NCBI RefSeq assembly: GCF_030013595.1
Contig: NZ_CP122768.1
Reading direction: 5' to 3' (one strand)
Source of the DNA: Escherichia coli
GTDB taxonomy: Bacteria; Pseudomonadota; Gammaproteobacteria; Enterobacterales; Enterobacteriaceae
DNA length: 64,000 bases
In this document: positions 61,349 to 61,466 of the stretch, piece after piece
Layout: each line of letters begins with the position of its first letter
How positions within the stretch are numbered: the first letter of the stretch is position 1
Translations under genes and position numbers: made by a program
Notes under the pieces: model-generated
Told to the model about the DNA's origin: nothing
Databases searched by the model: none
The model's input: only the letters and a program-made list of their open reading frames with translations

Positions 61349-61393
61349 ATGAATGCTGCTATTTTCCGCTTCTTTTTTTACTTTAGCACCTGA
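61349..61393 (+). CDS. pheM: pheST attenuator leader peptide
   Basis: 14-codon [17 protein letters not shown] (5 Phe codons) followed by an attenuator hairpin. Confidence 0.85.
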
Positions 61394-61440
61394 CTCCAGG
61401 AGGCTAGCGCGTGAGAAGAGAAACGGAAAACAGCGCCTGA

Positions 61441-61466
61441 AAGCCTCCCAGTGGAGGCTTTTTTTG
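61441..61466 (+). terminator. pheST attenuator terminator
   Basis: AGCCTCC-cagt-GGAGGCT followed by TTTTTTT. Confidence 0.7.

Follow-up and report, generated by a model that had tools for sequence, protein, structure and literature searches.

The feature at 61349-61466 is, almost certainly, the pheM leader together with the ribosome-mediated leader-peptide transcription attenuator of the E. coli pheST(-ihfA) operon, an attenuator that is already known, has entered the textbooks and is already annotated. It lies in a window of 64,000 nt, the whole stretch of DNA analysed here, from contig NZ_CP122768.1 of the Escherichia coli assembly GCF_030013595.1. An earlier note on this DNA had proposed the same identity, which is now borne out by a match to the Rfam family RF01859 (Phe_leader), by RefSeq annotation, by the identity of the peptide to b1715 and by the mutually exclusive helices of the leader. 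The RF01859 match covers both the long protector helix and the terminator stem and scores above the curated gathering threshold (Table 1); a weak match of the same model on the reverse strand (25 bits, E = 0.84) arises because the helices are palindromic. In near-identical E. coli genomes, RefSeq labels the rplT-pheS interval with both 'Phe leader region' and 'pheST operon leader peptide PheM', and the PheM peptide of the window is identical to b1715 of K-12 MG1655. Work on pheM goes back to the 1980s, so that its rediscovery contributes no more than the correct annotation of this window.

The last 6 kb of the window carry the gene order thrS-infC-rpmI-rplT, a gap of 450 nt, and then pheS-pheT. 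The site is highly conserved within the species: of 5,426 complete E. coli genomes, 5,425 carry the 501 bases around it with an identity of at least 95%. Between the window and K-12, 441 of the 450 positions of the rplT-pheS intergenic region (61227-61676) are identical, and the nine substitutions are unevenly placed, with six in an inserted repeat described below and one in the leader (61394, C here and A in K-12); the divergence thus amounts to about 4% inside the 145-bp repeat and about 1% in the remainder of the intergenic region. A comparison with the published pheST leader had been proposed as a check of the identity, and when run against K-12 it returned an identical peptide and a single substitution in the leader.

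Translation of 61349-61393 yields the 14 codons, five of them for Phe, that had been claimed for the leader peptide, and the coordinates given earlier for the whole feature, 61349-61466, proved exact. The Phe control codons occupy positions 6, 8, 9, 10 and 12 of the open reading frame (61364-61384). Among the 764 short ATG open reading frames of 8-30 codons in the window, five or more Phe codons were found at three loci only, of which pheM is the shortest and the densest. The two others (17-29 codons, plus strand) lie at 17759-17848 and 52729-52794 and are probably out-of-frame stretches inside genes.

The signals around the leader are conserved as well. In an alignment of upstream regions from 51 species, the pheM Shine-Dalgarno sequence AAGGTAA is invariant or nearly so, the terminator hairpin of rplT is conserved, and the -35 element of a putative pheM/pheST promoter is kept as TTGAC(T/A) in at least 80% of the species. 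No call was made for this candidate promoter at 61282-61310 in a scan for the sigma-70 consensus, which missed it because its -10 element has no A at position 2.

Table 1. Features of the rplT-pheS interval and its borders, in positions of the window.
Feature	Position	Strand	Basis or remarks
rplT (ribosomal protein L20), the gene upstream of pheM	60870-61226	+	Open reading frame; RefSeq annotation of the near-identical locus L001
Terminator-like hairpin of rplT, AAAGAGGGAG / CTCCCTCTTT, followed by a T-rich tract	61235-61264	+	Perfect 10-nt inverted repeat
Putative pheM/pheST promoter: -35 TTGACT (61282-61287), 17-nt spacer, -10 TTCAAT (61305-61310)	61282-61310	+	By eye and conservation
Shine-Dalgarno-like AAGGT for pheM	61334-61338	+	11 nt before the ATG; sequence
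Match to Rfam RF01859, Phe_leader	61343-61467	+	74.4 bits, gathering score 55, E = 1e-11, full model 1-125
pheM leader open reading frame	61349-61393	+	ATG at 61349, TGA at 61391-61393; 14 codons; annotated as pheM in RefSeq
Protector (1:2) helix	61358-61392 with 61397-61434	+	-36.0 kcal/mol; the 5' arm is the run of Phe codons
Antiterminator	61395-61412 with 61433-61455	+	-20.6 kcal/mol; overlaps terminator bases 61442-61455
Intrinsic terminator (3:4)	61439-61448 with 61453-61462, T7 at 61459-61465	+	10-bp stem, -14.9 kcal/mol
RSA-like palindromic dispersed repeat in the pheST 5' UTR	61487-61635		145-149 bp; fold, copies, empty sites
Short hairpin GUGUCA-CCAC-UGACAC	61648-61663	+	Outside the repeat; retained in empty-site strains
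pheS Shine-Dalgarno GAGG (61667-61670) and start ATG (61677-61679)	61667-61679	+	Sequence; RefSeq pheS start

Folding of the leader, the other check that had been suggested, recovered all three of the alternative structures of a classical attenuator. The GC hairpin with a T-run described in the earlier note corresponds to the terminator, whose stem occupies 61439-61462 and is accompanied by seven T at 61459-61465; its G+C core consists of GCCTCC and GGAGGC (61443-61448 and 61453-61458), and its loop is CAGT. Since the antiterminator shares bases with the protector as well as with the terminator, it is mutually exclusive with both. For the leader (61340-61468), the folding energy is -53.7 kcal/mol, as against -33.3 +/- 3.7 for dinucleotide shuffles (z = -5.5), and its unconstrained minimum-energy fold combines the protector and the terminator. 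When a mask of about 30 nt, mimicking a stalled ribosome, was centred on Phe codon 10, the predicted fold was that of the antiterminator (-29.1), whereas masks on Phe6, Phe8 and Phe12 retained the terminator (-29.0 to -30.8). The energy gap between the two outcomes over the full leader is small, so that the choice would have to be kinetic and co-transcriptional, as in other attenuators; by this reasoning from folding models, the decision between terminator and antiterminator would be made by the order in which the helices fold during transcription.

Comparative evidence from other Enterobacterales supports the same architecture. A DNA-pattern scan for the core IFRFFFYF over a collection of species-representative genomes returned 120 loci, of which 76 hold an open reading frame of 13-15 codons ending in IFRFFFYFS(T/A/V), with FNA seen once at this end; the remaining hits are chance matches within unrelated T-rich open reading frames. 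All of the 76 pheM-type loci belong to Enterobacterales or to enterobacterial metagenome-assembled genomes, ranging from Escherichia, Salmonella and Citrobacter to Yersinia, Serratia, Providencia and Budvicia. At every locus whose fetched DNA extends into the adjacent genes, the pheM open reading frame is found just downstream of rplT and upstream of pheS; the latter gene follows in 75 of the 76 other loci, and the contig of the remaining one ends before pheS.

The helices were evaluated on an alignment of 75 leaders, namely that of the window and those of 74 other Enterobacterales. For the structure of the terminated state, 93% of the alignment cells are paired, compared with 48-62% in controls with the partners displaced by 1-3 columns, and six pairs have changed on both sides, a level that was reached by 9 of 500 shuffles. 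The protector helix (94% of cells paired) contributes five pairs with changes on both sides, and this covariation falls on synonymous positions of the Phe and Arg codons, for instance TTT/TTC offset by A/G on the opposite arm. The terminator helix is paired in 97.5% of cells, and the antiterminator in 86%, compared with 42-57% in the slid controls. A covariation test of the antiterminator on the 75 leaders gave no signal above shuffles, since there is almost no variation among its bases, on which the terminator imposes a further constraint; the predicted antiterminator helix is accepted here on its conservation and energetics, and not on covariation.

Put together, these elements suggest the following course of events. 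Transcription would begin just upstream of pheM, and the leader of 14 codons would be translated by a ribosome. With Phe-tRNA(Phe) plentiful, the ribosome would reach the stop codon at 61391-61393 and cover the 5' arm of the antiterminator (from 61395 onward), and when the leader is left untranslated, the protector helix (61358-61392 with 61397-61434) would form; in both cases the terminator at 61439-61462 with its U7 tract would form and transcription would end before pheS. With charged tRNA(Phe) scarce, the ribosome would stall on the five Phe codons (61364-61384) and hold the 5' arm of the protector, the freed 3' arm of which could then pair with 61433-61455 to build the antiterminator, so that the polymerase would continue into pheS and pheT. 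The response to Phe-tRNA charging that this scheme ascribes to the locus is taken from the literature, and the attenuator would tie the production of phenylalanyl-tRNA synthetase to how fully tRNA(Phe) is charged. The 210-nt spacer stands outside the switch, and about 145 nt of it is a later repeat insertion that is simply co-transcribed in the 5' UTR.

This spacer had been estimated in the earlier note at about 210 bp between the terminator and pheS, and from the end of the T-run to the pheS ATG at 61677 it measures 210 nt (61467-61676). The note had also pointed to further hairpin potential, citing GCCTGTCTCATCAGGC; this sequence is indeed present, at 61491-61506, and has turned out to be no part of an attenuator: it belongs to the left inverted-repeat end of a dispersed repeat. 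The hairpins of the spacer should therefore not be read as regulatory design, as they belong to a mobile-looking, polymorphic repeat. Its terminal inverted repeats are 17 nt long (61490-61506 and 61614-61630) and 88% complementary, and its central palindrome, CGTACTTAAGTACG, lies at 61555-61568. A folding energy of -81.5 kcal/mol (z = -4.9) was obtained for the spacer region 61467-61690, in which the repeat forms one long hairpin at 61490-61630. On the minus strand, the terminal hairpins of the repeat (61481-61506 and 61604-61630) are each followed by a T-rich run and were called terminator-like; judged by these calls, the ends of the repeat could stop antisense transcription entering from pheS.

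The repeat is dispersed in the genome. Each E. coli genome with a match carries at least one full-length copy (80% or more), with a median of 5 places, and genomes of the K-12 lineage, including the K-12 derivative C600, have the repeat in 6 places. The copy beside pheS shares 85% identity over 149 bp with another one, located between rlmL and ycbX, and both of these examined copies are intergenic. Of the two, the rlmL-ycbX copy has the perfect direct repeat CTAAG at either end, and the flanks of the pheS copy are imperfect, being TAAA (61485-61488) and TAAG (61632-61635) with a further discrepancy of 2 nt relative to the empty allele. Read as a target-site duplication from these two copies and the empty site, the flanks are ambiguous at the pheS copy. 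RSA repeats are small, palindromic and intergenic elements, MITE-like in the way that ERIC/IRU elements are, and the repeat studied here shares two traits of such elements, namely terminal inverted repeats and a presence/absence polymorphism with an intact empty site. The centre of the repeat (GGAGCGTACTTAAGTACGTGAG) resembles what we take to be the ERIC core. In the table that summarises an early K-12 GenBank record, RSA repeats are given as 150/151 bp in 6 copies and ERIC as 127 bp in 19 copies (PMC5172473 Table 1), and RSA has also been published as BEE95, as the reference list of PMC3751351 has it. With 145-149 bp and about 5-6 copies, the repeat fits RSA in length and copy number (145-149 bp against 150/151 bp, and 6 places in the K-12 lineage against 6 copies), and an identity with ERIC/IRU was therefore rejected. 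The spacer repeat is probably of the RSA (BEE95) type, an assignment drawn from length and copy number and not from alignment to an RSA sequence. The current RefSeq record of K-12 has no repeat feature at the pheM-pheS spacer.

The distribution of the repeat at this site suggests that it is a later addition. It is present in 4,781 and absent from 643 complete E. coli genomes (88% and 12%, respectively), and the 643 genomes have an intact empty junction, GTTTTGAAAAAATTAAGTCCAACG; NZ_CP098210.1 is an example of an empty-site allele. The filled and empty alleles differ by a net 145 bp, the pheM stop and the pheS start lying 283 and 138 nt apart, respectively. Kluyvera and Pseudocitrobacter also carry the empty sequence ATTAAGTCC, and a near-identical version of it, ATTACGTCC, is present in Salmonella; as the empty junction of E. 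coli is shared with these outgroup species, the empty site is the ancestral state. In a blastn search of the fetched DNA, in which the pheM loci of other species were included, the repeat was matched only in three E. coli loci. Absent from 643 E. coli genomes and undetected in the sampled loci of other species, the repeat is not part of attenuation. It appears from these comparisons to have inserted after E. coli diverged from its relatives, and to be still polymorphic.

Several side observations concern individual genomes. In E. coli MLI106K3 (L004:309-767, NZ_CP117020.1), a transposase gene of the IS200/IS605 family is inserted between rplT and pheM, before the leader, and the spacer has the empty-site form. 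The chromosome NZ_CP090611.1 (labelled as E. coli, 4.42 Mb, from pig) is the only one whose best match to 61200-61700 was a fragment of the repeat (18%, at 84% identity), with no match to the pheM-pheS leader, and this genome may be mislabelled or divergent. Across Enterobacterales, the spacing between the pheM stop and the pheS start varies from 111 to 307 nt, and several species have spacers that equal the filled E. coli allele in length (277-307 nt) and show no match to the E. coli repeat. The loci concerned are L063, L030, L044, L033 and L051, from Yersinia nurmii, Moellerella, Hafnia and Serratia spp.

Outside the repeat, a short hairpin (61648-61663) is situated 4 nt upstream of the pheS Shine-Dalgarno sequence. 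A hairpin is found at the equivalent place in most Enterobacterales with differing stems (GGUGUC.., CCGGCA.., GGCCA.., CCAGCC.. and GACC..), its register and sequence changing between clades. Folding of the individual sequences lends it moderate support, with a median z of -1.8 relative to shuffles and 59% of the sequences below -1.5; RNAalifold on a MAFFT alignment of the 55 nt upstream of pheS returned no consensus pairs. To our knowledge, no function has been ascribed to this hairpin.

Two alternative readings deserve consideration. One of them holds that the repeat is a functional second layer of pheST control, adding to the attenuator and not replacing it; for example, the long hairpin in the 5' UTR could set the half-life of the mRNA or be cut by RNase III, resulting in strain-specific pheST expression. 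The repeat is transcribed on every read-through mRNA, the predicted structure is the single long hairpin with the folding energy given above, the insertion is kept in 88% of E. coli genomes, and the pheM-pheS leader is a known target of RNase III, which makes the downstream message less stable (PMC5371410). However, 643 E. coli genomes do without the repeat at this site while their flanks are otherwise intact, it is undetected in the DNA fetched around pheM from other Enterobacterales, the empty site is the ancestral state, and the concentration of six of the nine K-12 differences within it suggests weak constraint. In addition, the mapped RNase III sites fall in the termination structure of the attenuator and not in the repeat (PMC5371410), and the sequence scan called no promoter-like or plus-strand terminator-like site inside the repeat. 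We therefore regard a second layer of control as unlikely. Its more specific form, in which the repeat is a natural regulatory variant whose hairpin of about 140 nt (61490-61630) would alter the stability or the RNase III processing of the read-through pheST mRNA, is a model that we consider quite unlikely. If it were true, the basal expression of the synthetase would differ between E. coli lineages. The filled/empty polymorphism provides a ready-made natural experiment on how a long 5'-UTR hairpin might influence the expression of an essential gene.

The other reading, that the Phe-rich open reading frame is a coincidence of a T-rich helix arm and that the structure is a constitutive terminator or RNA-processing site devoid of translation-coupled sensing, can draw on the facts that TTY codons arise almost automatically in one frame of a T-rich 5' arm when the helix is long and A/U-rich, that the two other short open reading frames noted above also reach five Phe codons and that RNase III cleaves the pheM structure (PMC5371410), but it has practically no chance of being correct, given that the frame, start codon, AAGGTAA Shine-Dalgarno sequence and stop position are conserved in the 76 loci, that third-position variation in the Phe and Arg codons is both synonymous and compensated on the opposite arm, that an antiterminator excluding the terminator is present and conserved, that the regulated gene encodes a synthetase specific for Phe, that published work treats pheM as an attenuator (PMC1262725, PMC5371410), and that coupling of read-through to pheM translation and to pausing at Phe codons is reported in the literature summarised by PMC5371410.

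The reading of the region as the pheM attenuator of pheST agrees with published work on this operon. The original experimental demonstrations of pheST attenuation were reportedly those of Fayat et al. in 1983 and Springer et al. in 1983 and 1985, in J Mol Biol, and in the work of Springer et al. read-through is said to rise when charged tRNA(Phe) is limiting, a response for which summaries are given in PMC1262725 and PMC5371410. The pheST operon has been presented as the γ-proteobacterial example of a classical attenuator located before a synthetase gene (PMC1262725). Gordon et al. described pheM, which they treated together with hisL, as regulated by transcription attenuation, located sites of RNase III cleavage in its termination structure and reported that the downstream message decays faster in the wild type than in an rnc mutant (PMC5371410).

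Compared with pheM/pheST-ihfA of K-12, the locus of the window is alike in its peptide, in its position between rplT and pheS and in the 283 nt that separate the pheM stop from the pheS start, strain-level substitutions being the only difference, and no notable difference from the RF01859 Phe_leader family was seen. The attenuators of pheL-pheA, trpL, hisL, thrL, leuL and ilvL each comprise a short open reading frame rich in cognate codons, mutually exclusive 1:2, 2:3 and 3:4 helices and an intrinsic terminator, and the pheM attenuator follows the same logic. It differs from these six in its targets, which are aminoacyl-tRNA synthetase genes whereas the others control biosynthetic enzymes, and it is one of the few cases of a synthetase gene under leader-peptide attenuation. 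It also differs in the origin of its predicted antiterminator, which is drawn mostly from the loop side of the protector (61395-61412), whereas other enterobacterial attenuators use a separate segment 2.
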